Below are positions 1-50,919 of a stretch of DNA of 64,000 nt, one piece after another. The translations under genes were made by a program, and so were the position numbers. The notes under the pieces are model-generated. The model searched no databases. It saw only the letters and a program-made list of their open reading frames with translations, and had not been told where the DNA came from. The stretch's first letter is position 1, and every line of letters starts with the position of its first letter. Source of the DNA: Candidatus Omnitrophota bacterium (lineage in GTDB: Bacteria > Omnitrophota > Gorgyraeia > Duberdicusellales > 4484-171); the NCBI GenBank assembly GCA_021735655.1, contig JAIPGM010000001.1, forward strand, positions 161,728-225,727. Direction: 5' to 3'.

Positions 1-55
1 CCGTCTTGATCCAGTACGGGATAAATTACTCTATGACTATCTTTTAAAGCGTTTA

Positions 56-1240
56 ATGAGAGAGGGTATGATTGGAGCAGCAGTTGATTTTGAACAAATG
101 ATGCAGGCTAATTCCCTTTCGGTTAATCTTGCCCAAGTTGCGACTAGAAGATTGTTGGCCGATATAGCTATTTATCACACCGAAGAATTTGCTTTAGGAT
201 TACATCTCCAAACTAAAGGCGTGCCAACCTTTATTATGCCTCCGGCAATTAACCCTTTTAGTTATAAAAATATTCCCCTAGCTGATAATTTTATTCGGGC
301 AACTATGGTTAAATATGGTTTAGATCCCAATAAATTTACGGTTGTTGAAATATCACGTTTCGATCCTTTTAAGGGGCCGCTGGAGGCCATTCAGGCTTTT
401 GTGCGTTTATTTTTGGATAATCCGGGATTGCAGAATGATTTACAATTTGTTTATGCCGGAAATATGGCTGACGATAACCCTAAGGGAAAACGCGATTTTG
501 AAAAGATCGATGCCTATTCTCGCTATCTTAGAAAGAAATTTCCTAAACTTAGGAAAGCCTTGTTTTTGCTCGGTCTTGGGAATAAACCCGGGACAGTAGC
601 CTTAAATTGGGCCCAGAGACGCAGCTTGCGTGTTGGTGGTCAGTTTGCTCGGCCATTTTCTCGGAAAGAGATAGGTCGACTCAACGGTGTTGAGATAAAT
701 GCTCTTGAGGTTAATGCTTTACAGCAACAACTTGAGATGGAAAAAAGAGACGGTAGGTTAGTTATTTCTTTACCGCGTAAAATAGCAATACAGCCTTCAT
801 CAAAAGAAGGTTTTGGCTTAGTGGCGGCTGAGGCTACCGGAAAAGGTACTCTGGTTATCGCTTCTTTGATCGGTGGCCTTAAAGCGCAATTAAAGGATTT
901 GCTTGCGCAAGCTTCTTGGTTGGGCATTAACTATACGCCGGAGGAAATTAGTCAATCTTTAGAGGTGTATGACTCAATGGATTCTGATCAGCATAGAGGT
1001 GTTGTTTTCGATGTGGCTTATTTGGAAAGAATTAATTTATATCAACGGCTTAATCAACGAGAATTCGTTTTGGGTTTAGCTACCTCTCTGCGGGTGGCTT
1101 ACGAACTGGCTCATAAAAATCCAGATGTCTATCGAGAGCTCGGTTTAGCTGCACGTTGCCAGACTTTAGATAAGTTTATTACTCTAGCTAATGTTGAGAA
1201 CCGCTTAGCCGCCGCTTCCTTGATTGTTGATAATCAGCAG
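56..1240 (+). other. Module A: C-terminal portion of a GT4-type (group 1) glycosyltransferase, truncated at the window edge.
   Basis: Motifs EISRFDPFKGPLEAIQAF and EGFGLVAAEATGKGTLVIASLIGG match the GT4 C-terminal Rossmann domain (E-x7-E / EGFG...EA...G.P.I region). The module ends immediately before the PLDNG at 1241. Confidence 0.55.
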
Positions 1241-4200
1241 CCCTTGGATAATGGTAAGCCAGAAGTTCCGATGCCTTCTTCTTATTGGATCGATCATAGC
1301 CTTCTTCATGAAATTGATAATGTTTGGGCTAACTTGGATTGGATTAATCCCGGGCCAAGTTTAAGCATAGCTCGCCAGATTGAGAAAAATTTTAAGCCAG
1401 CACAAGAGCCAGGTTTTTTAAGAGTTAGCATAGATGCCTTTGGTCCGCTTAACGGATTTAAAAATCAAGTATTAGCTGAACATGAGCAGTATTTTGATTC
1501 CGAGGTTTATAAAGATTATCGAGCTGGCATAATTCATGCTATTGATAATCTTTGGCAACACGGCGGAAAGTACGGTGCCTTATTTTTGATGGCTCAGCTT
1601 AGAGGACGAACCGTACGCTTTACTTATTGTTTGCTAGATCGCGGTGATGGTTTTATTAATGACGATTACAACCATGTTCGTTTAGAAGAAGCCGTTCAGG
1701 CACATAGAACATTTAAACGAGCCGGCAAGAATGGTATGGGCCTTTATTATATGGCGATAAAGCCGGATTATTTTTCAATCACCGCGGTTAATTGCTACCG
1801 GGCTGTTGCCACAACTCAAGCTCACTATTGGGAAACTGGCTACACTAAAGAATGGCCGTTTTGCCCGCAACAAACTCCGGTTAACAAGGGGGTGCGGGTG
1901 ATTTCGGTAAAGGATGTAGCTTTAGGCCTTTTGCCATTTTCGAATATGCAGCCGTTAGATAATGGCCGTCGAACTGATGAAGAACGCCTGGATTTTATCG
2001 GATTTTTAGTTGAGTCATATTTAGAGGCTTTATTTACTTTCCGGAGGTTAAGAGCAAATAACAGCGAAGTAGCCGAGATGTATCTGCCAGCAATTTCCGA
2101 AACTGCCGTTAGAAAGAAACGAGCCAAATGGGTAGTTACAGCTGTTGAGGTTGCCCGTGAGGCATTTCAGGTTATGGCTCGAGCTGATTTTCGACATTCA
2201 TCCGGCTTAACCATTCGTTCAATCTTTGATTCAATTTTGGCTTCTGGCGGTCGCAACCAAGCAGCTAATGATCTAGGAGTCGATCGCGCTAGCCTTACTC
2301 GCTGGATGCATAGCTTACCTAATGATTTATTAGGTGGGTTAGATCCAGAATTAGCAGTCTTCAAACAAAGAATCCTTGATTTATTTGATGAAAACAATAC
2401 TCGACCCCTAGACAACGGTAAAGAAAATATAGATTTATTAGCGGTTACAGCAGTTAAAAGAGAGGACACCTCACCGTGGCTGGCGGGCCCTCTCTCTGCT
2501 GTAGCCCCTATATATATAGGTAAACAGCAGGGGCCGCTAGATAACGGCCGAGCGCCTTTGGATAATGGCCAGCCAGCTAACTTTTGGAAAGTTTTGCATT
2601 CTGGTATATACGTACTTCCGATATATTACACTCGACTTTTCGATACAGCTAAAGACGCAGGAATTGGAAAATATACTTATGTAGTGCCGTTTGTTCGTGA
2701 TCATGTATTGTCTTTAGGCCATCAAGCGATACTTTTCTTACCGTTTTCTTTGCAGTTACCTTGGTCGCAATCTCCTTATGATGCGGCTGATTGGCGTTAT
2801 TTTAATACTGATTATATTGATTGGGGGCTTATCCCTGAGGCTCAACCTTTTCTAGGTAAGTTCGATTATTACGGTCATTCACAGCGTAGCGTTGATTTTC
2901 GATCAATCCGGCCACGTGAATTATTAATCGGAAAGGCCGCCTTTCTTAATCTCAGAGACAATCGAGAAAAACAATACCGCCAGCGCTGGGAAGATTTTCA
3001 AAGGTTTGTTAACAATCAGCGAAGTAGAGGGCCGGAGTGGGATTTAACCCATCTTGGTCATTACCGGGCCTTCAATGATGTCTTGGGTAATGATTTTGGT
3101 TTATGGGTTCATGAAGGGATGTATTGCCCTAGGCAGGATACCCATCCAGATGTTATCAAGTACAACGTTGCTGAGCAAAATAAAAATATGCAATATTCAG
3201 ATTTAATTCAGTTCTATCAATACCAGCAATGGATTGCTTTCGGCCAGGCTCGCGATATGCTTGAAGGTTTGCGCAATATTGGTGTCTTTTATCTTTTAGA
3301 TAATCCTTTCTTTCATGCTAAGGGTGGTATTAATTTTTGGACCCAAAACATCATTTCAAGAGATAGGCATTATGAATTTTTTGATCGTTCACCCGGTGTA
3401 CCCGGAATCGGTAGTGACCCTGAACAATTCTGGACATCTTTGGTTCCTTGGAATTGGCCTAGATTAAGAGAGTTGGACTATGAACCTTTCTTAAACCCTT
3501 ATCATTATTATTTAGGTGATTTGGGCGCTCAGGGAGTTCGGGCTGATGCTATTCATTTTCTTTTTCCTTGGATTCATTGGGAACGCGGTCCTTATGCTGC
3601 TAATTTTCAGAGTTGGGAGTCCCCGGGTCATGATTTACTTTGGAGATTAGACAACGTTTTTAATTCTTATGGAGCTTTCAGGCTTGGCGAGTTACTTGGC
3701 CCGGGTTTTGAAAGTATTCAGAGAATGGGCTTTGATAATTATCACTGGCATTTCTATCGGATGTGGAAATGGGGTGGCGGACCTGATTTAAATCCGGGTT
3801 GGAACGCAAAAGCTTTAGAGTTACATGATGGGCCGCGGGTTTGTGTTGACCATGAACACGGGTTCTATCCTTATGCCGGACACGCTTATTTACGGCATCG
3901 TTTGGAGGGCCCGGGCGGTCTAAAAGAATTAAATAGTCGTTTCCTTTTAGGCAGTTCGGATATAGCTATGGTTTATGCCGGAGATGAAGTAGCCGACAAC
4001 TGGTGGATAAATAACCCTAATCTGCCTGAGTGGATGATGGATCGTAATTGGGCCACTCGAATGCCAATGCAGGGCGATCAGGATTTTGATCTTTCAGTAG
4101 CCTTGTCCATGCTTGAGCATCGCCGTTGGATTGGCCAGCGTCTAATTGAGCGGACGCCTTTGGATAATGGTAAGCAAGAGTTTAATCATCTTAGCTTGGT

Positions 4201-25200: not shown

Positions 25201-28200
25201 TCAAGTTCTGGATGTAGATGTTCTTGGCCATGACTATTGTCATATCGATAGAGTTGGCTTTGACGCTTGGCCTGATATGGCTATCGATCACTTTGAAATG
25301 GCCCGAATTGTTGATGAGCAGGATCAGCTATTACACACTTTTTGGTACGGTGTTTATTCAGAACGGATTCCCAATAGAGGTAGAGCTAGAATTTTAGGGG
25401 CGACTTTTACTGCCGGAGGTCACCTGCGACTTGGTAACGAAGATGTTTATCATGATGCGAACTTTCCCGAAGCTAGAGTAAATGTTACTTATATTGACGG
25501 AGAAGTAAGTGAGATATTAATTTATCAGGATGCTCAAGGCAACTCAGTAAATTATCATTATACTAAAAAGCAGATAGATAATTATAAGCGCAGAGTGCAA
25601 TATTATAATCTGCGCGGTCATGTATTCGAGCATGCTTTAAGAGTTGCCTTACCTTTTTTAAGCGACTGCCCTTTTGATTATCAAAAGCGCATTGGTGGTG
25701 AAGTTGATGGGTGGGTTGATGGTGAAGCTGAACCAAAGCCAGCTGATTCCAGATCACTTAAACGTCCAGATTTTACTAGTCCTTTTAGCTGGGCAATGAG
25801 TGAAGGGGTATTGTGCTATATTGATGCTAAATTCAATCTTAGAATTAAGTTTTTAATAGAATATCTAGAGGCAATTAAAGAGACTTTAAGAACTGATTAT
25901 TTTACTGATTGTGATGCCCCAGTTGAAACACATTTTGTAGGAAGAGTTATATTTGAGATAGTTTATTTAGGCAGAGTAAGTGAAGCTAATGTAGAGGCAA
26001 AGTTAGCTGGTCATCAGAGAAATTTTTCAGCTACCAATTCTGAGATGCTCACCTTGAAACCAGTTAGCTTTCTTGATGAGTACGGAGATAGGCTTAAGAC
26101 CGCTGGTCAGGATACTTTAGTAAGGTTTCTGAGACATCTGAGAGTTTTTCATTATAAGCCAGGTCGCAAGAAAGCCTTAGATAGCTATTTAGCCCAATTA
26201 GAACAGGATAAAATTCCCGAGATAGCCGATGAGCAGACTAATCTTTTTTCAAGGCCGCTGGATAATGGCCGAGAAAGATTATTGGTTAGTAGCGGTAATA
26301 GTCATTTAAAAAGTTTTCGTGAGGCGAAAGGTTTATTAGCAAAATTAAAATGTACAGACATTTTTGGGGTTGTCATGGGTTATCGCGCTGCCTTAGCTGA
26401 TAGAGATAATTATCAGAGAGTATTTGCTCGTGATTCTGTTTGGATGGGGTTAGCCGAAATGCTTTCCGGCTGTAAAGGTAGTTTAGCTTTAACATTAAGC
26501 GTATTAAAACATCATCAATGTCGGTACGGACAGAGACGCGGGGCTATTCCGAGTAACATTTCAAGGTATCATCGGGTAAGTTATGGGACAACTAGCCCAA
26601 GAATTGATCCAACCCTTCTTTATATTGTTAGTTCTGGCCAATATTATCGGTCCAGACCAGCCTATTTTCAAAAACAGTTTCTCGTTGAAAATTTATCGCC
26701 GCTACAAAAAGCTATAGCATATTTAGAAAGACAATGGGTTATGGATAACGGTTTATTGTTTATTCCGATTGCCGGAGATTGGGCTGATGAATATTTTCAA
26801 CAAGGCCTTGTTTTGTATGATGAAGTTTTATGGTATATGGCACTTTCAGAGTATGCCTACCTTTTAGCTGAAGATAATAATTCTAATTCAGAAGTTTATC
26901 AAGCTAAGGCTGCTTGGGTAAAGAATATAGTCAGATCCAAATTTTGGATAAATAAAAATCCCGGTCAAGGCAATTTGGGGCATTTCCGTCATTTTTTCAA
27001 TCAATTACAAAGCCCGAATCAGGCAGCGACATTTGGCTGTCCCTATGATAGCTTTGATGCTTTTGGTAATATTTTGGCAATTCTTTCCGGCGTGGCTACA
27101 GAGGAGCAAACTGCTCAGATAATTAAATATATTGATGTAATTTCAGAAAATAATCAGCCATTACTGGTGCCGGCACATTATCCGGCAGAAGAAGTTGAAC
27201 ATTTTGTTCACACAGGTGCTCCGTATCGGTATCAATTTAAGAATAATCCCGGGTGTTATCATAATGCTGGTTTATGGTCATGGTATACAGGTTTATATGT
27301 TGCGGCATTAGTGAAAGCCGGCCGATTAGACCGGGCGGCTAAATTTTTAGAAGGGGTACAGCTAGCCAATGAAGCTAAGGACTCAAATGGCCGGGGGTAT
27401 CATGAGTACCATACTAATATTCCCGGTCAATTGAGTAGGCCGGGTGGAGTTAGCAATTTAGGTGTCAGCGCTGCTGGTTATATAATAGCTCACCAAGCAT
27501 TTTTTAAAAATAAGATTGTTTTTGGTCAGAATCATCCTTTAGACAACGGCCGTCAGATGCCTGATTATTTTTCTCCGGTTGGAGACGTCAATGTAACTCT
27601 TAATAGTTCTTCAGAAAAAGCCCCCCTTGATAACGGAAGAAATTATTCCAGTTCGCCAATATTTCAAGAGACAACCTTTACCTATTGGTTAAGAGTGAGT
27701 TTATATTTATTAAGATTTTTGCTTAGTGCACCTTATTATTTTATTATTACTTTAGTTGTATCAAGAATGATGAAAGGAAAAAACATTTTATTTGTATCTT
27801 ACCGTATTAATGAATTTGCTTTAGATGGAGTATCTTTAGAAATAAAAGAGTGGCGAAATCTTTTATATCGATTGGGCGCACATATTTTTCTATTTTCTGG
27901 TCATAGCAAAATTGTTCAGGATGGAAGTATCACCGGTCAGGCTCCGGATTGCATTGAGAGTGATTTTCTTGCTGAACAGGCAACAAAAATAAGAGAGAAG
28001 ATTGAAAGAGAGGGAAAGCTAGATGCTGAAGATTTTGAATTAATTCATAGAGCAAAAGAGATAATTAAACGCAATCTGCGTAAGTGTATCTTGGAAAATA
28101 ATATTCACTACATTGTTTCGGAAAATGTATTTTGTCTACCGGGAAACCTCGCTCTTGCCGAGGCACTTATAGAACTTGCCGAAGAGTTTCCTCGGTTAGG

Positions 28201-29311
28201 TTTTATTTCTCATAACCATGATTTTTGGTGGGAACGATCCCGCTATTCAAAACATATTCGCACTGATTGTGCTAGTTACTTAGATAACCTTCATAATCGA
28301 ATCCGTCGCCAAACAGTCGTTGTTATAAATCAAGGCCAGTTGAGAAATATTTCAGATCATCTCGATGCTGGTTTGCACAAAGTATTTATTGTTCCGAACG
28401 TAAGAGATTTTTCCCGAAAGCCAAAAGTAGATCATTCGTGCGTAGCTAGGCTTAAGACTTATCTAAGACAGAGGCACGGGATTACTGAAGATTGCCATGT
28501 ATTTTTAGCACCGGTAAGGCCCGTTTATCGAAAGAATTTAGAACATGCTATTGATGGTTTGGCTAAAGTTCAGGAAGAAATGGGGGAACCTTTGCTATTT
28601 GTTGTAAGCCATAGCGCCCAAGATTCTCAACCAGGTTACGTTGACCAACTAAGAGCTCGGGCTGAAAGCCAGGGTCTTAAATTTGTTTATCTGGGTGAAG
28701 AAGTGCTTTCCGGTCAGTTTAGCTTAGAGACGATATATGCTTTTTGTGATATGGTCATTGTTACTTCTACCTGGGAGGGTTGGGGTAATGCCACGCTTGA
28801 AGCATTTTATTACCAGAGACCAGTTATTGTCTGGCCGTACCAGGCTTACCAAACCGAGATAAAGCCTGTAGGGCTAAGTTGCTTAGAGGCGCCTGAATTT
28901 TCTTCTGAGGTCATTACTTCGATAATTACGGTTTTACGATTTACTTGGTTGAGAAAAAGAATTGCTAGAGGGAATTATTGGTTAGCTAAATTACATTTTT
29001 CTTACCGAAGGCTTACAAGAGTATTTTTTAAAGTATTTAATAATTTAGAATCTGCCGAAACCAAAACACAACAATTTCCGCTTGATAATGGTAAAAAGGG
29101 TGAGGGTTCTAAACCAAAACAAAAATTATCTCCTTTCGAGAGATTTAAACAAGACATAGACGAGCTTCTTAGCAATCCCCAAATCAGGCAAGTAAGCGTA
29201 GACAGTATTCTTCAATTTTACGGCCCACGGCTGAAACGCGATGTTGTTGAGGCCCATCTTAAAAGTAAGGGTTTCCAACGCCGGGATAGAGACACCTATT
29301 TAATTCCCTGA
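56..29311 (+). CDS. Giant stop-free ORF, at least 9,751 codons and 5'-partial (frame open back to window position 2). It encodes a polyprotein-like chain of about 28 heterogeneous modules separated by a recurring PLDNG[RK] peptide.
   Basis: The ORF track gives 56..29311. I read the 18 codons upstream of the ATG at 56 in frame and found no stop before the window edge. Absence of TAA/TAG/TGA over about 9.75k codons is essentially impossible by chance at this base composition. The translated content carries many recognisable enzyme motifs listed below. The stop at 29309..29311 is TGA. Confidence 0.6.
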   Translation: MREGMIGAAVDFEQMMQANSLSVNLAQVATRRLLADIAIYHTEEFALGLHLQTKGVPTFIMPPAINPFSYKNIPLADNFIRATMVKYGLDPNKFTVVEISRFDPFKGPLEAIQAFVRLFLDNPGLQNDLQFVYAGNMADDNPKGKRDFEKIDAYSRYLRKKFPKLRKALFLLGLGNKPGTVALNWAQRRSLRVGGQFARPFSRKEIGRLNGVEINALEVNALQQQLEMEKRDGRLVISLPRKIAIQPSSKEGFGLVAAEATGKGTLVIASLIGGLKAQLKDLLAQASWLGINYTPEEISQSLEVYDSMDSDQHRGVVFDVAYLERINLYQRLNQREFVLGLATSLRVAYELAHKNPDVYRELGLAARCQTLDKFITLANVENRLAAASLIVDNQQPLDNGKPEVPMPSSYWIDHSLLHEIDNVWANLDWINPGPSLSIARQIEKNFKPAQEPGFLRVSIDAFGPLNGFKNQVLAEHEQYFDSEVYKDYRAGIIHAIDNLWQHGGKYGALFLMAQLRGRTVRFTYCLLDRGDGFINDDYNHVRLEEAVQAHRTFKRAGKNGMGLYYMAIKPDYFSITAVNCYRAVATTQAHYWETGYTKEWPFCPQQTPVNKGVRVISVKDVALGLLPFSNMQPLDNGRRTDEERLDFIGFLVESYLEALFTFRRLRANNSEVAEMYLPAISETAVRKKRAKWVVTAVEVAREAFQVMARADFRHSSGLTIRSIFDSILASGGRNQAANDLGVDRASLTRWMHSLPNDLLGGLDPELAVFKQRILDLFDENNTRPLDNGKENIDLLAVTAVKREDTSPWLAGPLSAVAPIYIGKQQGPLDNGRAPLDNGQPANFWKVLHSGIYVLPIYYTRLFDTAKDAGIGKYTYVVPFVRDHVLSLGHQAILFLPFSLQLPWSQSPYDAADWRYFNTDYIDWGLIPEAQPFLGKFDYYGHSQRSVDFRSIRPRELLIGKAAFLNLRDNREKQYRQRWEDFQRFVNNQRSRGPEWDLTHLGHYRAFNDVLGNDFGLWVHEGMYCPRQDTHPDVIKYNVAEQNKNMQYSDLIQFYQYQQWIAFGQARDMLEGLRNIGVFYLLDNPFFHAKGGINFWTQNIISRDRHYEFFDRSPGVPGIGSDPEQFWTSLVPWNWPRLRELDYEPFLNPYHYYLGDLGAQGVRADAIHFLFPWIHWERGPYAANFQSWESPGHDLLWRLDNVFNSYGAFRLGELLGPGFESIQRMGFDNYHWHFYRMWKWGGGPDLNPGWNAKALELHDGPRVCVDHEHGFYPYAGHAYLRHRLEGPGGLKELNSRFLLGSSDIAMVYAGDEVADNWWINNPNLPEWMMDRNWATRMPMQGDQDFDLSVALSMLEHRRWIGQRLIERTPLDNGKQEFNHLSLVESNGEQKLYSASSLVISQRGVYLSPTSTGPKEVISQIQLSPSGIKVSGELTSQEPKSRPIDYRHSYEINFYFEKLAKAYGRGLFVGINDVQLWIRLSQALGDFLWGVLRLETGIFDIPDRKLRRLVIQEALYHEVMTSALGLSVANRGLREFFATILSVSHFCYLSEIAKDQDKLNYRLGILQALDRGLIQMSDSLAGLYRQIAESGSLPDPATLVKAVITHINEEERYHSDRRSFRDYVRTKSENFSGRFTVGNLTQAVLNDSALQLELQAEWTNFLGFLANSQTVARAWQPKIKFIRGPRGIKVINPQGVPDQGGYQFQLQSFRAIFDCLGLPNPLSEPAALNRYLGFLPEPPEYDSQAVNLPELNISQILPGVAVVYPDSLEANQLAVRRALYELMNFRVWKLAVEIRGALGTEDALFFDQHCQVHSFVDVAQGWMLDLNPQSPIVYDDVLPGGQAYEAPEQPDLAEHERLHQKAQAVFSKVWAITMNRFLRDQRMFGGEAVGLVGFTTTVPILYRYIQQCKHSEPEYSLQRPLNNGLGILQYLQSLRRSQETEAARRVSLDQGFGQLKSLLVEKLQSIDSTTLSIANLDQALNEDSQAIFLTLEQLREARFQAESFRNGQVSMCDLASLALAAASEEVFGQRHLVKIVVGYYRVDEQLYKKHYWVVIDETLLIDITYGQFDPDHLNRILVATVDDYLRLKLEYGTELEPLDNGKQTQVQPTCLEARWWNNYYPGVIEGTGIRPTARSLSFEQIEEVVCLLLLDQAGQELVAKIINRELPDVYPSVRRTALKAMVRFDHYELFGPKIITCLQDVVRDGAEMYQPFALYALAQTPAFNGPVANRFAEEALKGTLKPSPRKPTAAEKTALQEGLEPNTQAIRFKSRLASVEYLKGVLAQRQGWARVCLGTVPHFSRVSNRALINKFAAQVLAADKKLSSSSAQRRQKDKSEFWGLEQAEFIHPATGHEALVELANDPELSSSDESPLVDQILHQMEELGYVPILRPSKFQLTEPAQGQEAEIDREALWTKDAVLMISTKFGIVPVSSALANLKGGEFVSGYGKRGSFMIIPAAALNSKQQLSDIIPEVPIHVFPSGFLVINDQGVIRLRGTSHIDTSLGAIPIMARPESGQLMLIDPLLHQVARTHPRYRDHYQSVVQEDGVRFIDVPEPERHLNPANFGILPGGEIFMPYAPRTKQVLIEAGVNEQYIIMLPSEFNKYLPTLHVLAGSIGCLVAQAFHPVEKREPLDNGHEKEKRQTRSRAIDISTKGAEDLLFTELQTGSLVSLVVDGLEYWLSLDQGDEVWFDLYRPKDDIIGYIYFRNDAMPARKIANFGGPSIVPAYRGRHLSRVLYFVYFRYLWRNNYIPEEDCLTIDDRLALKLYHEAKKFYYDQDHTFTPFQIIPRAEKTKAAKPLDNGHDMVQKQLFELIKRKSDSIKTFLEPFEACLAYNGVLALLIRGRPDLSVKFLLKKIGSAEHWFLLAETVLGNHQFVVDISPQGKMFTDIEVLVVDCAEAGKINYLYEDYTVVSDQETENLLRALARQKGMNEFLHLVHQLPEEKWIGRLPDSDQSMPLDNGKLINEGSESSFSDITNSMRVTFVMPMYNEQQRLLPKTSDNPYGEDALRVKVSQFRELEQENPNFQWRLIAVDDGTPGFASAKCLEQILAEIDAQNREFNIYSKVFVVVITEQEKKLLGSRKGGAVLRGFQEALSHGWADYIGITDTDISSNVNQTKDLILALRKGAGVAIGSRRQSGAEARGIPLLGRVSTVIYNWCIRLILWPLFSIRDTQRGFKLFQKEVIVRILPYARDHHLSFDTELLLLSRLAGYQIAEVPIVWIDSAEATTLVMSKDAPAMLWRVIKQARHIFNNPFRGQKPLDNGRKINLSVRMLRKARLITVHVDAGDCPAALASAIDKLVSGLGQIQVSRSNIVLNTAHQNSPMDIVSSVGSLSTEQITTLFPEAVFLIAGGNVFKCLRNLVESLAVGSVNKRTVRIFVLYDYTYGQGSNYSPEQLAGEYYDYFSDMLSVYSDRFNLAVFYLAQNQFEQEIYGKNLSGPNLSLAIIEKEALASQVPLDNGRSLGELTAEGYNLKFLARSSDLRMTAHCRRDVSFNSYLYDYRLDPEHTYRQAQLVPLVARSVKENAFRKSSDWQYLPQHLKDLYDSGKVLMIASRAQAKAKPSRYSALVISGRTEAFSGRMGILLYDNRPIIVSILDKPFFIEAKGIGVAQGGFSSVHRRSGHRYEVTGAQRWQASLKEFTSLELERKISRFFGTADTPRALAAIVYKYPQMDQLISDSLTSQAERREAKEQLGDSLGIMLRLSPSSRRFAYNLEQRHIRMLGEASARLLCSYLPRVHTSPHFENLLEWAEGSEFSWSDYGDIEVLFAQSSYHWSRSLINARRILMSYLETSISWNVNLLKKLGIIETEAEFISEYLAGFVAYAETLDWITPEAIERLARVRSPKEFVDVMIFEVFALNAYNVFKKQTYETIVEVNQNNLVEELLSSALTIAQRQEKAQLVAELSGHIEAAKQGEAFLGCRIKKSQANQGVLTPVAQPVKNSSWANPFFDQFAYDLWHALLFDDHNLYDYVQAKWDYTVGEEGAFNVAGFYLLDAHYLGLLRSRTSMHNIPEKLYMCSAGYEMTANINKLLTAINRVSLCPQENTLVRSTVRNTLQHAISQRLSKWRLARALILVVESNGEVLAGDDSTYVYIMDSGPGMPIDAVMQGDWRRHSTMFGTDLKGFREYRDVEWILDSWSSKAGGPQRWDGLRGGLVEGALVPDNMPLFGTLFGMRLKHGLESSSKPLDNGRDSRSKGQNLGSLGTANKAPPVKTYNVESPFNRFSLRLLDLILTLSFLPLIILASLPIAIFVKYQIFKHKTGQSVIFKEQRFGYKGKPFIMYKFRTYIGDKDNPKAVLLSLRCLGLDELPQWWNILKGDLSIWGVRPKLQDDPSSDSDFQAHLDQINDLRKPGIISLATADVHAEMEHVSFSAEHRDRQIAFDLYEAEYWSFFLAFKIVVLNIFAQFKEAARIVFRNKILVIVAVHIPQAEQPKAGPILNILEYLSQRFPSKYYSVFVGFPDSGNPNLNLDLAIPQGLTIGLGEGDEYNIVNSQGLKLKFSWQFEGPDDLSQRTLKIGRHKLLMPLCAESSLPVFSGAKKKIPHKAIFIPFIAFRPCIVTCMNDLIFLNLPIIGLDTANGIFLFVPGSTQIDIVGTNKLLAVAINHSGRVMGSSFKDLDQVVPLDNGRQTISHFRSGEGQSRTGPTSRNFPLDNGGRNNEAIENNRFSFANRLGKVLVATVIGGISLGLLYLFGGLDWYTNIKNSIPLGAVIFWPGAFLDMVTGVLIWLISDIVGQYLNQGRSIRYRQSFKVGAWGVFQGLATHILYNLVELLPVVPLPLAQAMFRTIFTLFGGLTINIFYTVVVARARKASKAEGYSGLKERHKAYDVIFSKFIVAPIKTYFIVNLLPPATRVISEQAWEYLMKVFDAYLMNRKDSLFSSYILNLLSRKKPLDNGRSGQSDDQITLVSDNLVDSFRNVRQRLVVTVRRAQMSRLDFKPGIVSLQNMSPKVDYFCLSSISERQEDIQAYRQVPLVQDGASFGESYSEKYLIAQEPDTLVLVEGDEGLIASFDYSLCGCLVIRARNLFGMAHLSPFIDFSDEEMEIENDRIYYKYLSVLDYFKLQGYKDVQIFLSLNELLQGFKTLKARLWSAGDSDATNRQRVVDLLGIEARQRGIAVVDRRLRQKSEVLDVLGFPRKMISRQWLNRGTKPESFEIIFIETRDELPVAINSETQQPEIEYFQFAWPVVIPLDNGRRKLPNDDWIWVNGESLQFVGRDGLLITGMEGRGKSFLARKIYDSDDRWKVVSCGATHVCIRNELAERALLGRRLSENNLLYSRLSGTIPVELSLDVVVRLNWVMALDDLYREILGGLLADAGQRESLGLKIIDMSDLDVTRQWPKVLKFINASIVKPETYDKGNSLFQVPLDNGRRAQVEQEREFLIQTIINVFSQGEGLCLEPAQIEAAIAVDTSFDEYRIARNLPIVIGLKGNIYENCPLASKPLLLVFTGRGSITKPELIFNAYTQQGLVREASRLSRSMETKNAIWEIPYHGKKTAFILEDKNNWIALAAVYGPEDIYQQGLLICKGGDRITRLGTEISQAAGEADEEAIFSDYSRALVVARLLGFSILDGPDMMRRVNRRMSAMIAAAKETVADINEFAKAYPGYEAVDTHHILKPTTSNPVEEGGFPHTEWMVTSRGVVQGTVTALRWLRQVLDVGENRYPEEVVRFVKNLNIFGSPMSYIVQGFGDVGSGITKLFLTIFKIFGFQARGFNNRYFAIYRREGLPKPFLVEAREIVEVSPDALDLGRLLAMKSFDDQLQGAVVWIANPINPKTKEPVFGPADVDRVNQALAERGVTAIWGDQTVVNELIYQKATVLFLAATANVISELSQVERLQVKIISEGANNAVKPELREPLRKANVFYIPGELLNGGGIYASKEDIRHNHTDGSELIRQHRQYYYIHVTDEIDTLALHRMISFLEIWAESAGNFSFDLTVHVEKVAGRIFEAADNLVRTNNTRLRKFTQIDQKRTFDHQAGRPTLPWRHSLYEIAIEMAPMGILYHLRDVGRHLSLLNRFKVAIKEDGQIDNYHICRLRFALFELTKLGYYLKSNQRRRLIGLLPGIITDEKCDGLLRKDAMFCLAMAIRWQEEESCKSEVDRARKLYLGILQNPLESAQLHTWAQHCLYRIFGENYFRRISADFDRLNGVNLPKPLDNGRDSSVGITSEPLRILAELISNSYRTKALVEFLQPFLDCESVNYLQEEIAKHCQLPAWGVVSSSHYLDEGYFYYGLKSGIDRCLERGVMVENDGNRLYVTKDSEDTVKYSGLDETQENQWGIFIFPSEYFNQAINCGYAEAGLRLSHNRLGITTYPYFKSSLSLAPARFLIIDRSKADEHRHLEGQPKLKDKLQALTEAGLKVLWLPDSSGPFFDPDFQYAFGELLFSNDIPETNRFLFYPSADTQDLTKIIWWVLQSLRMSSIKNRLLHNMELARQFKKIGPFDNGRADFTTADEQIGNLFAEAVITGDNVLIETHWDAVAAKRGGSLNILEHAGLRITRSLALGIVPRAGEWPDRVETDQIILSSSRYGWIDSERDIEHLLSGFDQARLLNSFNLGHYYQGCHYRSFLSWLAVLKSSHFPAVIFHFIGELINSWGIKPAAKSDFPVLASRRDIFSFVSVPYVSDIEKLDLPVAVFFDGKLSSLRRGDSRKQPTLILAYWQALNGFIGFKEQIARETAEFQNTPLDNGRKEHDISDSTVIQWPLNVIVKDMRGLSKGEILAVVKTGKIFWGREIVGAIFSDRNIVFGKVVDDKFIVFDDWLIERIPGGLLEGLRRSILFLPYLGSILRNKTSSINKPLDNGKKYNYRQVLEMVDCFDSARLEAHLFRALGRVETEAVSIAGDIIRAARKFERITKAVKSLYRKTYGKLPNFTLAFDPSGQGMYGAYQEDDTAGFFDHIGVAPEDVLLEVGSGDGSISDFMAHMFGIKATGIEVWEPYYHYAVFLRDEAVRRRFIPEGKVDFLNNNLVDVDFSKYSLVYYAALGTRRKSELAARLLGVREKSRILIRGSPDELVEGIIASHPDFSLRKLEIEVNENLTGIKARVYTRETITSYQPVLDVPLDNGRKNNPQMVRARLAAFEKSIEGIVPRADPLYDHLIRFYQYPLNNLGEPDEETYVRNNTKEQERELLRFWAGHFGLPKNYGGHVTIGIGQAEYYAMYVASNRFPKAIFYISNQVDSLLYDTLQVLGIDQGRIKLIRSLENGEIDYGDLKRKIRENSSWPAVVCLTAGRFLGAVDDLGKVEGILGSLGLKHKHIHCSMSPLSIGQSFLEDAAKIDFQHGLDSMSLPLYHFVRCPMPGVIVLTRRKYLQNIACSQKAAEYVNSNDTTNSGSRSGHAPLYLWFATKVIGTKGFKAQAERAREVCVSIKALFDRYGYPCRFTAQKNTIIFEPPFYELRQKWGLLSHGQWSCFEIVPYLTPVEIAEFVSDLLGDHSQAVAAPVETVFPERIVYEPSPEVLDVLDQLEARIQILMERFLGFPANIAGNETSFAALSSLFKYTLRKKDVEGFRHEALKFFTDLYGLRYEDFYCGITAGGTWGNRVGLLVGRENFPGGILYYSQDSHYSIDKVARSLNMEVRKVASLSNGQIDYDELAEAIEENRGRPVIVNLNIGTTMKGAIDNPQRVIEILREQDVTDYYIHCDAALFGMILPFLEAAPKIDLANGVHSIAISGHKFLGLPMPSGIFMVRKNCARDRLITISDRLLTAQTGHVILYFWQAVASRGYEGCREEAMACVDNAQYLYYRLQERGLPSEVNPFSNITMFSRPSGSLIDTWQLAPCGDRVHVVAMQHVTRDKIDAFVQELTRDMQQGQIELASSMQPLDNGRRRKASLVPEVGLDELVEKHLGNLKLISSEYGKSVGMLSTILRRPDNESLQQRAEELRKIGPGRLALAADLGEFGVDSLKIGQKYGVGRRTAASWLVNNGFGDRVNSARYSRSRTLRRQKIAQEYEPIARLLDGEGNLLQTFYTHISWKEVSAYPFAVLDELEIQATEVLSYGGKQWGQFKGHAGHRARITLEWGYPIEVAMSSKRGVDQGSYRAMQLRTYQSTLFDREGELLDTAFFVFGYDEDLCRGTTKVVNYQLTKAGRISIFGDEQIQLIKHKQAWANLVAVDGKVVRATILDREGGNEVITYNFSRVYDENNRVIYTFTGGLEFKQSSVPPALLKSLARGRIEGIYLKGGRGNLTIGGRTWVVLSDYKNYPCRAYIEEGLVVRVEVLGEEGEAVFTKHSHRLYDREDNFVEVFYDSISPERLNQVGLCRSSPLIVTPSGELCLSGNRYTFENEGGSKAIVWIEPGVKFTRNRKPDGKAVRIDFYDQYMHYKHTRYAVRIYEDEGVLIDTFFGPGYAEKLKIFGDVIGFAQLDTLGSLNIGYTTHTFTKYGDPRHFVRFSLHQAQVLDVDVLGHDYCHIDRVGFDAWPDMAIDHFEMARIVDEQDQLLHTFWYGVYSERIPNRGRARILGATFTAGGHLRLGNEDVYHDANFPEARVNVTYIDGEVSEILIYQDAQGNSVNYHYTKKQIDNYKRRVQYYNLRGHVFEHALRVALPFLSDCPFDYQKRIGGEVDGWVDGEAEPKPADSRSLKRPDFTSPFSWAMSEGVLCYIDAKFNLRIKFLIEYLEAIKETLRTDYFTDCDAPVETHFVGRVIFEIVYLGRVSEANVEAKLAGHQRNFSATNSEMLTLKPVSFLDEYGDRLKTAGQDTLVRFLRHLRVFHYKPGRKKALDSYLAQLEQDKIPEIADEQTNLFSRPLDNGRERLLVSSGNSHLKSFREAKGLLAKLKCTDIFGVVMGYRAALADRDNYQRVFARDSVWMGLAEMLSGCKGSLALTLSVLKHHQCRYGQRRGAIPSNISRYHRVSYGTTSPRIDPTLLYIVSSGQYYRSRPAYFQKQFLVENLSPLQKAIAYLERQWVMDNGLLFIPIAGDWADEYFQQGLVLYDEVLWYMALSEYAYLLAEDNNSNSEVYQAKAAWVKNIVRSKFWINKNPGQGNLGHFRHFFNQLQSPNQAATFGCPYDSFDAFGNILAILSGVATEEQTAQIIKYIDVISENNQPLLVPAHYPAEEVEHFVHTGAPYRYQFKNNPGCYHNAGLWSWYTGLYVAALVKAGRLDRAAKFLEGVQLANEAKDSNGRGYHEYHTNIPGQLSRPGGVSNLGVSAAGYIIAHQAFFKNKIVFGQNHPLDNGRQMPDYFSPVGDVNVTLNSSSEKAPLDNGRNYSSSPIFQETTFTYWLRVSLYLLRFLLSAPYYFIITLVVSRMMKGKNILFVSYRINEFALDGVSLEIKEWRNLLYRLGAHIFLFSGHSKIVQDGSITGQAPDCIESDFLAEQATKIREKIEREGKLDAEDFELIHRAKEIIKRNLRKCILENNIHYIVSENVFCLPGNLALAEALIELAEEFPRLGFISHNHDFWWERSRYSKHIRTDCASYLDNLHNRIRRQTVVVINQGQLRNISDHLDAGLHKVFIVPNVRDFSRKPKVDHSCVARLKTYLRQRHGITEDCHVFLAPVRPVYRKNLEHAIDGLAKVQEEMGEPLLFVVSHSAQDSQPGYVDQLRARAESQGLKFVYLGEEVLSGQFSLETIYAFCDMVIVTSTWEGWGNATLEAFYYQRPVIVWPYQAYQTEIKPVGLSCLEAPEFSSEVITSIITVLRFTWLRKRIARGNYWLAKLHFSYRRLTRVFFKVFNNLESAETKTQQFPLDNGKKGEGSKPKQKLSPFERFKQDIDELLSNPQIRQVSVDSILQFYGPRLKRDVVEAHLKSKGFQRRDRDTYLIP
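2218..2310 (+). other. Fis-type helix-turn-helix DNA-binding motif inside module C (1967..2404).
   Basis: SIFDSILASGGRNQAANDLGVDRASLTRWM resembles the C-terminal HTH of Fis/NtrC-family regulators (consensus GN.s.AA..LGisR.TLyRKl). Confidence 0.45.
2570..4156 (+). other. Module E: alpha-amylase-superfamily (GH13-like) glycoside hydrolase or transglycosidase module.
   Basis: About 529 aa between the PLDNG sites at 2555 and 4157. GVRADAIHF resembles GH13 conserved region II (GFRxDAAKH) with its catalytic Asp. The module is rich in aromatic carbohydrate-binding residues. The upstream GT4 (TreT-like) module is consistent with alpha-glucan or trehalose metabolism. Confidence 0.4.
7955..8440 (+). 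other. Module I: GNAT-like N-acetyltransferase fold, tentative.
   Basis: IGYIYF...SIVPAYRGRHLSRVLYFVYF resembles GNAT motif A (V.P.yRG.GiG..Ll). The module is 162 aa, a typical GNAT size. Confidence 0.35.
8987..9826 (+). other. Module K: GT2-family glycosyltransferase (dolichyl-phosphate-sugar synthase-like).
   Basis: MRVTFVMPMYNE matches the GT2 N-terminus, followed by IAVDDGTPG (DxD-type) and GITDTDIS. The RGFKLFQKE region and the length of about 280 aa fit GT2. It is bounded by PLDNG at 8921 and 9827. Confidence 0.7.
12700..13300 (+). other. Small phosphoglycosyltransferase (PglC/WbaP C-terminal-like bacterial sugar transferase) domain within module N (12620..13915).
   Basis: FNRFSLRLLDLILTLSFLPLIILASLPIAIFVKYQI is the re-entrant membrane helix. 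FKEQRFGYKGKPFIMYKFRTY, DELPQWWNILKGDLSIWGVRP and DLYEAEYWSFFLAFKIVV are the hallmark motifs of the Bac_transf family. Confidence 0.7.
14015..14722 (+). other. Module P: polytopic integral membrane module of unknown function.
   Basis: Several long hydrophobic stretches (VLVATVIGGISLGLLYLFGGL, GAVIFWPGAFLDMVTGVLIWLI, LFGGLTINIFYTVVVA). The module lies between PLDNG at 14000 and 14723. Confidence 0.5.
15632..16141 (+). other. Module R: P-loop NTPase module.
   Basis: The Walker A-like motif ITGMEGRGKSFLARKI is present. The module is about 170 aa. Confidence 0.4.
16450..17700 (+). other. Glu/Leu/Phe/Val-dehydrogenase-like (amino acid dehydrogenase) domain within module S (16157..18496).
   Basis: IVQGFGDVGSGITKLF matches the NAD(P)-binding GFGNVG motif. 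EGANNAVKPE matches EGANGPTTPE. IPGELLNGGGIYAS matches PDILANAGGV. The motif order and spacing fit the ELFV_dehydrog family. Confidence 0.5.
20435..21205 (+). other. Module W: class I SAM-dependent methyltransferase module.
   Basis: LLEVGSGDGSISDF is the glycine-rich SAM-binding motif I. The module is about 257 aa and lies between PLDNG at 20420 and 21206. Confidence 0.55.
22480..23460 (+). other. PLP-dependent group II decarboxylase (histidine-decarboxylase-like) domain in module X. A degenerate duplicate lies upstream at about 21400..22200.
   Basis: YYIHCDAALFGMILPF matches H-x-D-A-A. SIAISGHKFLGLPMPSGIFMVRK matches the PLP-lysine motif S-x-HK of the histidine/aromatic amino acid decarboxylase family. 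The upstream half (YISNQVDSLLYDT...ENGEIDYGDL...AVVCLTAGRFLGAVDDL...IHCSMSPLS) has the same layout but lacks the HxDAA and HK motifs. Confidence 0.6.
23495..26254 (+). other. Module Y: large (920 aa) RHS/YD-repeat-like module.
   Basis: Recurring YD-type repeats: FDREGELLDTAFFVFGYDED, RVYDENNRVIYTFTGG, RLYDREDNFVEVFYD, RIYEDEGVLIDTFFGPGY and ILDREGGNEVITYNF. Confidence 0.4.
26270..27535 (+). other. Module Z: (alpha/alpha)6-barrel glycoside hydrolase of the glycogen-debranching (GDE_C / amylo-alpha-1,6-glucosidase) type.
   Basis: IPIAGDWADEYFQQGLVLYDEVLWYMALSEYAYLL, FGCPYDSFDAFGNILAILSGV and NNPGCYHNAGLWSWYTGLYVAALVKAGR match conserved blocks of the GDE_C family. Confidence 0.55.
27638..29077 (+). 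other. Module AB: N-terminal transmembrane helix plus a GT4-type glycosyltransferase.
   Basis: A hydrophobic helix (LYLLRFLLSAPYYFIITLVV) is followed by a two-Rossmann GT-B layout. The C-terminal VTSTWEGWGNATLEAFYYQRPVIV matches the GT4 E-x7-E region. Confidence 0.55.
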
Positions 29312-36566: not shown

Positions 36567-37349
36567 ATGAAGTTTAGAAAAAGAATAAAAAATGTATTTT
36601 TCCATAAATCCATTTTGTGGGAGATGTCGATTAAGCAGCTTAAGGCAAAGTATTCTGGTTCTATGTTGGGTATTTGGTGGGCAGTGGCGACCCCTCTTAT
36701 TCTGGCTGTAAGTATTAATTTTATTTTTACTAATGTATTTAAGGTGGGTATTGAAAATTTTACCTTTTTTGTTTTATCAGGGATAGTCCCTTGGCTATTG
36801 TTCTCTAATGCTATAAACGAAGCCGCCGGGTCTTTTATTGCCAATTTTTCGGTATTAAGGCAGGCCATTTTTCCTCGAGAGTTTGTTCCAATGACTTCGA
36901 TTATCTCTAATTTTTTAATTTTTCTGATCGGTTTATTGATTCTGCTTCCTTTTTTTATTGTTTCTAATCCGAGGGTAATTACGGTTTTGCCGTTTCTGTT
37001 GGTAGTTTTATTTTTTTATTTATTTTTTCTTGTCGGGCTTGCTATGATTTTTTCATCTTTAAATGTTTTCTTTCGTGATGTATCCCATCTTTTAGCTATC
37101 GGGTTAATGGTTTGGTTTTGGGTTACGCCTATTTTTTACTCTTTGGATATGTTACCGGCTTCATTTCGCTGGATCTGCTTAAGTAATCCAGTTACTTACT
37201 ATGTAGTTTCTTATAGATTAATTTTGTTTGAAGCGAAGCCGTTATCCCTTCCAATTTTGTTAACTTTATTTTTTATTTCCTTTACGTCATTCATCGTTGG
37301 TTATGCCTTTTTCCTTAAAAATGAAAATAGTTTATTAAAACGAGTATGA
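36567..37349 (+). CDS. ABC-2 type transporter permease (Wzm/KpsM/TagG-like).
   Basis: Six-helix ABC-2 topology, 260 aa. Its stop overlaps the start of the downstream ATPase (ATGA coupling). Confidence 0.75.
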   Translation: MKFRKRIKNVFFHKSILWEMSIKQLKAKYSGSMLGIWWAVATPLILAVSINFIFTNVFKVGIENFTFFVLSGIVPWLLFSNAINEAAGSFIANFSVLRQAIFPREFVPMTSIISNFLIFLIGLLILLPFFIVSNPRVITVLPFLLVVLFFYLFFLVGLAMIFSSLNVFFRDVSHLLAIGLMVWFWVTPIFYSLDMLPASFRWICLSNPVTYYVVSYRLILFEAKPLSLPILLTLFFISFTSFIVGYAFFLKNENSLLKRV

Positions 37350-47014: not shown

Positions 47015-47020
47015 AGTTAA

Positions 47021-47839: not shown

Positions 47840-47864
47840 ATAAGCAAAATTGTGAAAATTTAAG

Positions 47865-48737: not shown

Positions 48738-48740
48738 AGG

Positions 48741-50909: not shown

Positions 50910-50919
50910 AAATTTACAT

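Follow-up and report, generated by a model that had tools for sequence, protein, structure and literature searches.

A giant Omnitrophota open reading frame of unrelated modules joined by one conserved peptide: a candidate bacterial polyprotein

Introduction

In viral polyproteins, exemplified by the NIa/TEV heptapeptide sites of potyviruses and the 3C sites of picornaviruses, many unrelated proteins are encoded in one open reading frame (ORF) and are separated by a repeated junction peptide. This peptide is lineage-specific and co-varies with a domain encoded in cis, and small spacers are present between some of the sites. Here, we describe a giant ORF and related genes with a similar layout. 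The giant ORF is located on a stretch of 64,000 nucleotides (nt) from a Candidatus Omnitrophota bacterium (GenBank assembly GCA_021735655.1, contig JAIPGM010000001.1, positions 161,728 to 225,727 of the forward strand; this whole stretch is called the window in the following), and its modules are joined by the peptide PLDNG. In contrast to the viral examples it is found in a cellular bacterium with a DNA genome, it contains at least 25 modules that are mostly metabolic or glycan-related, and it is known from sequence alone.

ORFs of more than 20 kb are common in Omnitrophota (PMC10066038), so the size of this ORF (at least 29.3 kb) is not new in itself. Described examples are the ORF of V. archaeovorus with 39,678 amino acids (aa), the 'Archaeovorins' and dockerin-type giants (PMC10066038; bioRxiv 10.1101/2023.11.21.568195). 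They have been described as adhesin or coat proteins rich in transmembrane segments, with adhesin, carbohydrate-binding or dockerin domains and a C39 or S8 peptidase (PMC10066038; bioRxiv 10.1101/2023.11.21.568195). Cleavage into several products has been speculated upon, with the cleavage points stated to be unknown and the function poorly understood (PMC10066038; bioRxiv 10.1101/2023.11.21.568195). The ORF of the window belongs to the same phylum and size class and likewise has few annotated domains. It differs in being a string of enzymes with few hydrophobic helices and with explicit punctuation, and its Pfam results contain no adhesion, carbohydrate-binding, dockerin, C39 or S8 peptidase domain.

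Giant bacterial proteins from which unrelated enzymatic domains are released by inter-domain proteolysis are known from MARTX proteins (multifunctional-autoprocessing repeats-in-toxin) and large clostridial toxins (PMC6254334). In contrast to MARTX, the giant ORF has no RTX repeats and no C80 peptidase according to Pfam, its separators are far stricter and its cargo looks biosynthetic, not toxic. Fusions such as AROM, CAD, fatty acid synthases (FAS), non-ribosomal peptide synthetases (NRPS) and polyketide synthases (PKS) resemble it in carrying many catalytic units per chain at a fixed stoichiometry. Unlike the giant ORF they lack a conserved punctuation peptide, and modules of NRPS and PKS are paralogous, whereas those of the giant ORF are not. 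A recognition sequence flanks each cargo unit in the PatE-type precursors of cyanobactins, which are ribosomally synthesized and post-translationally modified peptides, in fungal repeat proteins processed by Kex2 and in nematode polyprotein allergens. The cargo of such multi-core precursors consists of short peptides or paralogous copies, whereas here unrelated enzymes of 100-900 aa are found.

Results

A frame of 9,769 codons without a stop

Frame 2 of the plus strand contains no TAA, TAG or TGA between nt 2 and 29308, that is, over 9,769 sense codons, and is closed by a stop codon at 29309-29311. The frame is still open at base 1 of the window; its 5' end is cut by the window edge, and the true start of the ORF is located upstream. 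Counted from the first ATG (nt 56), the ORF has 9,751 codons. The base composition gives a stop probability of 0.065 per codon, corresponding to about one expected stop in 15 codons, and the chance of a run of 9,769 codons is about 1e-284. The two remaining plus-strand frames of the same stretch contain 1,140 and 706 stops, and the next-longest stop-free run anywhere in the window has 3,855 nt. Codon frequencies in the giant frame correlate with those of the 21 downstream genes with r = 0.87, compared to r = 0.55 for the off-frames, and all Pfam domains of the ORF fall into one frame.

The downstream genes terminate with TAA (nine times), TGA (seven) and TAG (six). Since all three stop codons are used there, the standard code applies, and a reassigned stop codon was ruled out. 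An earlier note on this DNA had described a frame of about 29.3 kb without a stop, open back to position 2, and had excluded a reassigned code on the same grounds; both statements hold. It had also taken the encoded protein to be non-repetitive. All-against-all BLASTP of the motif-delimited segments described below gave a best E value of 0.18, thus there is no paralogy among the segments and the giant protein is indeed not repetitive. Adhesin- or RTX-type giants are characterized by domains of a single type, or of a few types, in tandem arrays, and such arrays were not found in the giant protein.

An independent assembly (Logan, run SRR12088349) is identical to window positions 19352-41070 in 21,719 of 21,719 nt. 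Its call of the giant gene is a partial product of 8,937 aa that runs to the contig end. This end apparently lies within the giant gene near window position 2498; no DNA repeat accounts for the break, and strain variation is a possible cause. No Rfam family and no tRNA was found in the window, and structured RNAs or tRNAs as punctuation between the modules were rejected on this basis.

The peptide PLDNG is found at the module junctions

The translation of the giant ORF contains 27 exact copies of PLDNG, compared to 0.008 expected from its composition. Two one-mismatch variants are present (PLNNG and PFDNG, one copy each; 0.67 expected), and with 27 of the 29 separator copies identical there are almost no intermediates. 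The motif is confined to the giant frame; the remaining frames and genes of the window contain no copy. At 24 of the 29 junctions the next residue is Arg or Lys, giving the junction peptide PLDNG[RK].

The 25 distinct 15-mers that encode the 27 exact sites make use of every Pro, Leu and Gly codon (four, six and four codons, respectively). Codon usage in the motif is close to the background of the ORF (p > 0.1 for D, N and L; p = 0.02-0.04, uncorrected, for P and G). The 60-nt flanks are 28% identical, which is the random level, and the only DNA repeats in the giant ORF are the stretches of about 20 nt that code for the motif. Since codons vary freely at the motif, the peptide and not the DNA is what is conserved, and selection on PLDNG acts at the peptide level. 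A DNA-level repeat, a mobile-element scar and a recombination site were rejected because of the variable codons and unrelated flanks.

The flanks of the motif are hydrophilic, with Kyte-Doolittle values of -0.72 and -1.19 compared to a mean of -0.24. From a motif to the next Met the median distance is 43 residues, compared to 45 residues from random positions. Without an enrichment of Met after the sites the modules cannot arise by internal initiation, and internal translation starts were therefore rejected. The motif copies delimit 25 segments of protein size (108-920 aa, median 293 aa) and five short pieces of 2, 23, 24, 38 and 72 aa (Table 1). The window ORF thus consists of distinct, unrelated, protein-sized modules parted by one peptide that is selected as a peptide. 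Closely paired separators leave the pieces of 2, 23, 24 and 38 aa (window positions 2534-2569, 13931-13999, 27551-27622 and 2420-2533, respectively), which may be released peptides or reflect spare sites. In the open-access papers and bioRxiv preprints searched, no earlier description was found of PLDNG, of the peptide RSELR discussed below, of a 'bacterial polyprotein' or of recurring separators in giant proteins.

Modules with solved homologues correspond to whole enzymes

Eight modules pass the Pfam gathering threshold (segments 1, 6, 12, 15, 20, 25, 27 and 29), and each Pfam domain of the giant ORF is confined to one segment. The remaining modules had no such match in Pfam or NCBIfam, and NCBIfam added almost nothing for these orphans. 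Residues 38-372 (of 374) of a histidine decarboxylase (PDB 7erv) align to residues 406-740 of segment 25, and this alignment ends 13 residues before the next PLDNG. Segment 27 aligns with the alkaline invertase 5goo through to the C-terminus of the invertase. Judged from these alignments, the modules with solved homologues correspond to whole stand-alone enzymes.

In content the modules are largely enzymes of glycan and amino-acid metabolism, and the module list of the earlier note is broadly right. Pfam supports above threshold the two GT4, the GT2, the PglC-like, the GDH-like and the GDE-like modules and the pyridoxal phosphate (PLP) decarboxylase. The module labelled GH13-like belongs to GH77 instead, a family of the same clan. 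The helix-turn-helix (HTH) and GNAT labels come from inspection by eye only; weak matches underlie the P-loop (E 0.006) and the methyltransferase (22.4 bits, with the cutoff at 23). RHS repeats had been listed as well; they found no family support and were rejected, and segment 26 carries a different repeat of about 87 aa that is common to other giants. Families of the reiterated C-A-T or KS-AT-ACP modules of NRPS or PKS were absent from the Pfam results, as were paralogous modules. Pfam detected no RTX or CROP repeat regions in the segments, and internal repeats were not found outside segment 26. Hydropathy analysis revealed only six hydrophobic helices in the giant ORF, located within three modules.

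A homologue of segment 26 is enclosed by a different separator

Segments 21-24, 8-11 and 26 gave no matches in word-indexed homologue searches. In a full HMMER search of 1.84 billion representatives, segment 26 retrieved 14 proteins, mostly giants of 1,400-6,247 aa. Since the word-indexed search had missed these relatives, its negative results exclude only close relatives. Segment 26 and its HMMER relatives share a repeat of about 87 aa (consensus VFY..VTIKG..L..G.L..GGR.WA.F..YP.APVE.DVE.GLV..VRILD). In segment 26 about six of these beta-rich units occupy residues ~130-690, and the C-terminal domain contains a PD-(D/E)xK-like motif, PDF...YIDAKF. The repeat recurs in giants of Omnitrophota and Endomicrobiales, where it is joined to SF1 helicases or sigma-70 regions.

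The best match, here called P0005, has 6,247 aa, is a complete gene in the metagenome-assembled genome (MAG) GCA_964434115.1 and also has the PD-(D/E)xK-like C-terminal domain of segment 26. It contains no PLDNG. Instead, R[SA]ELR is found in 17 copies at irregular spacing (0.025 expected for RSELR). In this genome, which has 52% GC, the two codon families of each of Ser, Arg and Leu all contribute to these sites, and this variation indicates selection at the peptide level there too. Residues 134-910 of segment 26 align with residues 104-874 of the 901-aa segment 9 of P0005 (BLASTP E 3e-70, HMMER E 1.5e-81). Segment 26 is flanked by PLDNG on both sides and its P0005 counterpart by RSELR on both sides; by this alignment PLDNG and RSELR are positionally equivalent. 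The earlier note had proposed to look in relatives for homologues that are separate, stop-separated genes. The single traceable homologue is again located inside a giant ORF, bounded by RSELR.

Further relatives use separators of their own or share that of P0005. P0006 (3,777 aa) contains [GA]AR[ML]A seven times with varying codons, and its helicase, HATPase and epimerase domains are each inside one segment. P0007 contains AG[LQ]EE five times, and P0009 uses RSELR/RAEVR again. Scans of genome collections recovered only the genome of P0005 itself, and the alignment of the ~87-aa unit is too variable to serve as a scan query.

Related giant genes begin with a common leader

One N-terminal module, here called the leader, is common to P0005, P0006 and P0009 (E 1e-11 to 1e-15). 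With P0005, which begins with this leader, the giant ORF has homologous cargo in common. Other giants in the genomes of P0005 and P0006 (3,739 and 4,015 aa) begin with the same leader, showing that several such genes are present per genome. These second genes (L002 38182-38744 and L005 24142-24797) are located less than 10 kb from P0005 and P0006, respectively. At its start the leader has a hydrophobic signal or anchor and then '...L[IL]QDAH...'; we defined the leader family by an N-terminal signal/anchor and a leader of about 500 aa in which QDAH..E..R..GGxH is present. When the leader modules of P0005, P0006 and P0009 were used as phmmer queries, nothing was found in the visible part of the giant ORF.

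A first metagenome scan found nothing. The scan with the leader confirmed 129 places, and 80 loci were retained from these. We examined 34 leader ORFs of more than 1,200 aa, many of which have no stop over more than 3,500 codons, up to where the examined DNA ends. A separator exceeding the shuffle maximum by at least two was found in at least 16 of the 34. Per 3,500 aa, R[SA]ExR reaches up to 12 sites, G-x-R-L-A up to 12, A-x-S-L-G 7 and GFGA 4. The first separator is usually found at about residue 470-690, directly behind the leader, and is often doubled, with the second site 10-22 residues on. Separator classes are mutually exclusive and track the clustering of the leader sequences. Two leader genes on one 2.17-Mb contig (L083 and L042) both use A-x-S-L-G. 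Altogether, at least seven separator classes were seen: PLDNG[RK], RSExR, GxRLA, AxSLG, GFGA, AGLEE and AGCFFGLP.

In three of the metagenomic ORFs (L017, L041 and L061) every Pfam domain lies within one inter-separator segment, and no Pfam domain spans a separator in these three or in P0006. The cargo of L017, L041 and L061 comprises acyltransferase, Fic, PfkB, methyltransferase, protein kinase and SMODS-associated NUDIX domains. Pfam did not report Peptidase_C80 in the giant ORF, P0005, P0006, L017, L041 or L061. Within their first ~3,500 residues, the 34 metagenomic leader ORFs contain no copy of the ~87-aa repeat, which is thus an occasional cargo and not a core part.

Several leader loci deviate from the usual layout. 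In L043 (9776-11443), and likewise in L048, the leader is a stand-alone gene of 555 aa. It is flanked by a giant ORF exceeding 3,218 aa that has five copies of (R)AGCFFGLP[MIL]LA and by an ORF of 2,079 aa starting 30 nt downstream, which may represent an 'unfused' arrangement of leader and cargo. The ORF upstream of P0009 (L004 8797-10026, followed by 10001-14878) is the first half of a leader and overlaps the start of P0009 by 26 nt; this leader gene is probably split by a frameshift or sequencing error. P0006 lacks the first part of the leader with the QDAH region. Directly upstream of it are a serine recombinase and an ORF6N-domain gene (L005 1465-3394), which suggests that its leader was truncated by a mobile element. 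Each separator class has an aliphatic residue, usually Leu (RSE-L-R, GxR-L-A, AxS-L-G, AG-L-EE, P-L-DNG, FG-L-P). This is a weak observation; it brings to mind the autoprocessing of MARTX toxins, which is Leu-specific.

The leader may be related to the Tiki superfamily

An alignment of 29 leaders contains 13 invariant columns (Q-D-A-H, Q, E, G, Y, R, G-G-x-H and P). Pfam searches member by member gave matches below threshold to ChaN/Cofac_haem_bdg (four members), DUF5694 (four) and erythromycin esterase (one), with other families as singletons. These matches converge weakly on the Tiki superfamily. Tiki-superfamily enzymes have a His-Glu based site and include site-specific endopeptidases, for example the Wnt protease Tiki and the MARTX effector RRSP (PMC6254334), the latter adding to the resemblance between MARTX and the genes described here. 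We regard the Tiki assignment of the leader as a lead, not a result. A Tiki-like protease encoded in the leader is the leading candidate for the processing enzyme in the relatives. In the giant ORF itself segments 8 and 11, both with a Cys...His-Trp...Asp pattern, and segment 18 are unverified alternative candidates for a protease.

Discussion

A proposed polyprotein cut at its separators

On balance, we consider it probable, though by no means certain, that the giant gene encodes a bacterial polyprotein which is cut at its separators by a co-evolving site-specific protease. A single chain of at least 9,769 residues would be translated, comprising about 25 unrelated protein-sized modules and a few short spacer peptides. 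P-L-D-N-G-[R/K], which joins the modules, would be recognized by a factor specific for its sequence. This factor would most probably be an endopeptidase cutting at or beside each site, so that the separators would be cleavage sites. The modules would then be set free in a fixed 1:1 stoichiometry, as with viral polyproteins. The Tiki/ChaN-like leader would be the processing protease, and the giant ORF would begin with such a leader outside the window. Unrelated peptides (RSELR, GxRLA, AxSLG) occupy equivalent positions, and a co-evolving reader fits this better than a shared physical property of the peptides. By these data, the chain is recognized at its module boundaries by a strictly sequence-specific reader, which changes in step with the peptide from lineage to lineage; an endopeptidase is the simplest candidate for it.

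A wider proposal is more tentative, and we would put it slightly short of an even chance: that some uncultured bacteria, Omnitrophota and other MAG lineages, produce sets of unrelated proteins as one giant polyprotein with a Tiki-like leader protease and a lineage-specific 'cleavage code', protease and code co-evolving as in RNA viruses. The window ORF would be the largest and most enzyme-rich example, in effect a glycan-biosynthesis operon as a single protein.

Several observations weigh against these proposals. Beyond the common architecture, only one module, segment 26, ties the giant ORF to the leader family, and since the N-terminus of the ORF is outside the window, its own membership of that family is unproven. 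No further user of PLDNG was found in the genome and metagenome scans (no copy among the fetched leader loci), and the leader genes L014, L067 and L028 have no obvious separator. No protease family was found in the window with Pfam or NCBIfam. The Tiki assignment of the leader is sub-threshold; its predicted structure reached a predicted local distance difference test (pLDDT) score of 59, did not resolve the catalytic core and gave no support for a Tiki fold, and Foldseek against PDB and a PDB profile search were uninformative and did not support it either. Finally, segment 25 (753 aa) has no internal separator though its C-terminal half alone matches a whole enzyme, which shows that not every enzyme-sized boundary need be punctuated.

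The giant protein might also remain intact as a membrane-anchored assembly line, with PLDNG[RK] as a hinge or turn or as an intramolecular docking element. Uncleaved multi-enzyme fusions are common, and the window itself encodes proteins with three and two radical S-adenosylmethionine (SAM) domains that have no separators. Asn-Gly favors tight turns; with few hydrophobic helices a largely cytoplasmic tethered complex is conceivable, and that no protease was found agrees with an intact chain. However, a structural linker should tolerate variation, and 27 of the 29 PLDNG copies are identical. Chemically unrelated peptides are found at the equivalent positions in other lineages, and tandem sites 2 aa apart together with spacers of 23-38 aa make poor sense as hinges. 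For these reasons we regard an uncleaved mega-enzyme as unlikely.

Sites exactly at the ends of modules are what release would predict, and the giant ORF is dominated by cytoplasmic-type enzymes that need nucleoside diphosphate sugars, PLP or NAD(P). Both points make it rather improbable that the reader is not a protease and that the separators are short linear motifs, repeated along the chain, which serve a modifying enzyme, a chaperone or a machine for secretion or sorting that takes up one module after another. Moreover, we know of no system with 20-30 copies of a sorting or modification motif in one chain. What keeps this explanation under consideration is that the evidence shows a sequence-specific reader and is silent on its action. 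In addition, export could be involved given the N-terminal signal or anchor of the leaders, and the cargo of the relatives includes effector-like domains (Fic, protein kinase, NUDIX and nuclease-like).

Co-translational separation, in which the ribosome skips a bond or terminates and resumes at the peptide as in viral 2A 'StopGo', would agree with a short motif conserved as amino acids, and the final N-G loosely recalls the N-P-G/P of 2A. We judge it highly improbable: 2A-type skipping is known from eukaryotic, not bacterial, ribosomes, and the ribosome is conserved, yet the peptides of related genes (RSELR, GxRLA, AxSLG, AGCFFGLP) are unrelated, which points to a lineage-specific trans-acting reader. 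Spontaneous Asn-Gly chemistry as the common mechanism was rejected because other separator classes contain no Asn. An artefact, whether from chimeric joining or miscorrection of the assembly or from consensus errors that removed the stops of a decayed operon, is scarcely credible even for a short-read MAG with a Logan contig that ends inside the gene, since the two assemblies agree throughout the 21.7 kb common to both, the stop-free run is far beyond chance, codon usage is in frame, PLDNG is present on both sides of that contig end and analogous genes occur in independent genomes.

Implications

The data suggest that the polyprotein principle exists in a cellular, enzyme-cargo and strictly punctuated form, a system not described before. 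Omnitrophota and other host-dependent bacteria are marked by giant ORFs, and the separators provide explicit candidate cut points at which giants could be split in silico before their modules are annotated and modelled. Should processing be confirmed, the viral strategy would have a cellular counterpart, in which stoichiometry is fixed without regulation at the operon level. Another possible gain is a set of proteases that are naturally orthogonal and highly specific for sites of 5-8 residues, which would be useful tools. In addition, the question is raised how unrelated genes were recruited in frame behind a common separator.

Segments of the giant ORF and neighboring genes

The segments and separators of the giant ORF are listed in Table 1.

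Table 1. Segments and separators of the giant ORF, in window coordinates. Matches are to Pfam unless stated otherwise.
Feature	Position	Strand	Evidence	Separator that follows
Giant ORF, 5'-cut	2..29311	+	9,769 sense codons and stop codon 29309-29311
Segment 1, 413 aa, N-terminally cut, GT4	2..1240	+	Glycos_transf_1 E 5.4e-10, 39.5 bits (cutoff 26.4)	PLDNG 1241-1255
Segment 2, 232 aa, orphan, GHKL-ATPase-like motifs by eye only	1256..1951	+	Pfam/NCBIfam none	PLDNG 1952-1966
Segment 3, 146 aa, orphan, HTH-like by eye	1967..2404	+	Pfam/NCBIfam none	PLDNG 2405-2419
Segment 4, 38-aa spacer peptide	2420..2533	+
Tandem separators PLDNG-RA-PLDNG (2534-2548, 2555-2569); 2-aa spacer is segment 5	2534..2569	+
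Segment 6, 529 aa, GH77 4-alpha-glucanotransferase-like	2570..4156	+	Glyco_hydro_77 E 3.4e-11; NCBIfam 4-alpha-glucanotransferase E 9.6e-9	PLDNG 4157-4171
Segment 7, 545 aa, orphan	4172..5806	+		variant PLNNG 5807-5821
Segment 8, 172 aa, orphan, Cys...Gly-Tyr...His-Trp...Asp pattern	5822..6337	+		PLDNG 6338-6352
Segment 9, 529 aa, orphan	6353..7939	+		PLDNG 7940-7954
Segment 10, 162 aa, orphan, GNAT-like by eye only	7955..8440	+		PLDNG 8441-8455
Segment 11, 155 aa, orphan, Cys...His-Trp...Asp pattern resembling segment 8	8456..8920	+		PLDNG 8921-8935
Segment 12, 297 aa, GT2	8936..9826	+	Glycos_transf_2 E 9.4e-6, 26.1 bits (cutoff 23.3)	PLDNG 9827-9841
Segment 13, 192 aa, orphan	9842..10417	+	only weak DHFR_1 match, E 0.005	PLDNG 10418-10432
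Segment 14, 724 aa, orphan	10433..12604	+		PLDNG 12605-12619
Segment 15, 432 aa, PglC/WbaP-type phosphoglycosyl transferase	12620..13915	+	Bac_transf E 1.6e-27, profile positions 2-177/179	PLDNG 13916-13930
Segment 16, 23-aa spacer peptide	13931..13999	+		PLDNG 14000-14014
Segment 17, 236 aa, multi-pass membrane module, at least 3 hydrophobic helices	14015..14722	+	hydropathy; no family match	PLDNG 14723-14737
Segment 18, 293 aa, orphan, CheD-like Cys/His motif by eye only	14738..15616	+		PLDNG 15617-15631
Segment 19, 170 aa, weak P-loop NTPase	15632..16141	+	AAA_16 E 0.006	PLDNG 16142-16156
Segment 20, 780 aa, Glu/Leu/Phe/Val-type amino-acid dehydrogenase domain inside larger module	16157..18496	+	ELFV_dehydrog E 3.7e-12; NCBIfam	PLDNG 18497-18511
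Segment 21, 281 aa, orphan	18512..19354	+		variant PFDNG-R 19355-19369
Segment 22, 237 aa, orphan	19370..20080	+		PLDNG 20081-20095
Segment 23, 108 aa, orphan	20096..20419	+		PLDNG 20420-20434
Segment 24, 257 aa, SAM-methyltransferase-like, borderline	20435..21205	+	DOT1 E 1e-4, 22.4 bits (cutoff 23); weak NCBIfam methyltransferase	PLDNG 21206-21220
Segment 25, 753 aa, His/Ser-decarboxylase-like PLP enzyme in residues 406-740	21221..23479	+	Pyridoxal_deC E 1.4e-25	PLDNG 23480-23494
Segment 26, 920 aa, HTH-like region, ~87-aa repeats, C-terminal domain	23495..26254	+	only module with relatives detected	PLDNG 26255-26269
Segment 27, 422 aa, GH100/GDE-type (alpha/alpha)6 glycosidase-like	26270..27535	+	Glyco_hydro_100 E 1.1e-13	PLDNG 27536-27550
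Segment 28, 24-aa spacer peptide	27551..27622	+		PLDNG 27623-27637
Segment 29, 480 aa, GT4, N-terminal hydrophobic helix	27638..29077	+	Glycos_transf_1 E 1.6e-9; hydropathy	last PLDNG 29078-29092
Segment 30, 72-aa basic C-terminal tail and stop codon	29093..29311	+

In segment 1 the C-terminal GT4 domain starts about 115 aa into the segment; from the usual GT4 architecture, about 75-100 aa of this module would be missing. The variant PLNNG after segment 7 is followed by L, not by R or K, and may be a decayed site. Segment 8 is an unverified candidate for a papain/transglutaminase-like hydrolase by its residue pattern, and a single-sequence AlphaFold2 model of it (pLDDT 50.5) was uninformative. 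Hydropathy places a hydrophobic helix at offset 42 of segment 15. The first ~400 aa of segment 25 have no significant family match; by eye they resemble a second, diverged copy of the PLP enzyme, and the two halves may form a built-in pseudo-heterodimer.

The G+C content is about 0.41 in the giant ORF (window 1-29311) and about 0.36 in the downstream genes (29352-64000); at codon position 1 the values are 0.52 and 0.43. A differing amino-acid composition or a different origin may account for this gap. The OppA gene, whose product is identical to NCBI entry MCF7907298.1, follows closely downstream of the giant ORF. Further on, at window positions 37346-54078, a cluster of unusually fused genes without separators is located. 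It encodes a Wzt/TagH-like ABC ATPase of 1,155 aa with a long C-terminal extension, a protein of 1,284 aa with three radical-SAM/SPASM domains, a protein of 1,052 aa with two B12-binding radical-SAM domains and further B12-radical-SAM proteins of 788 and 722 aa. Enzyme fusions thus occur in the source genome both with punctuation and without it.

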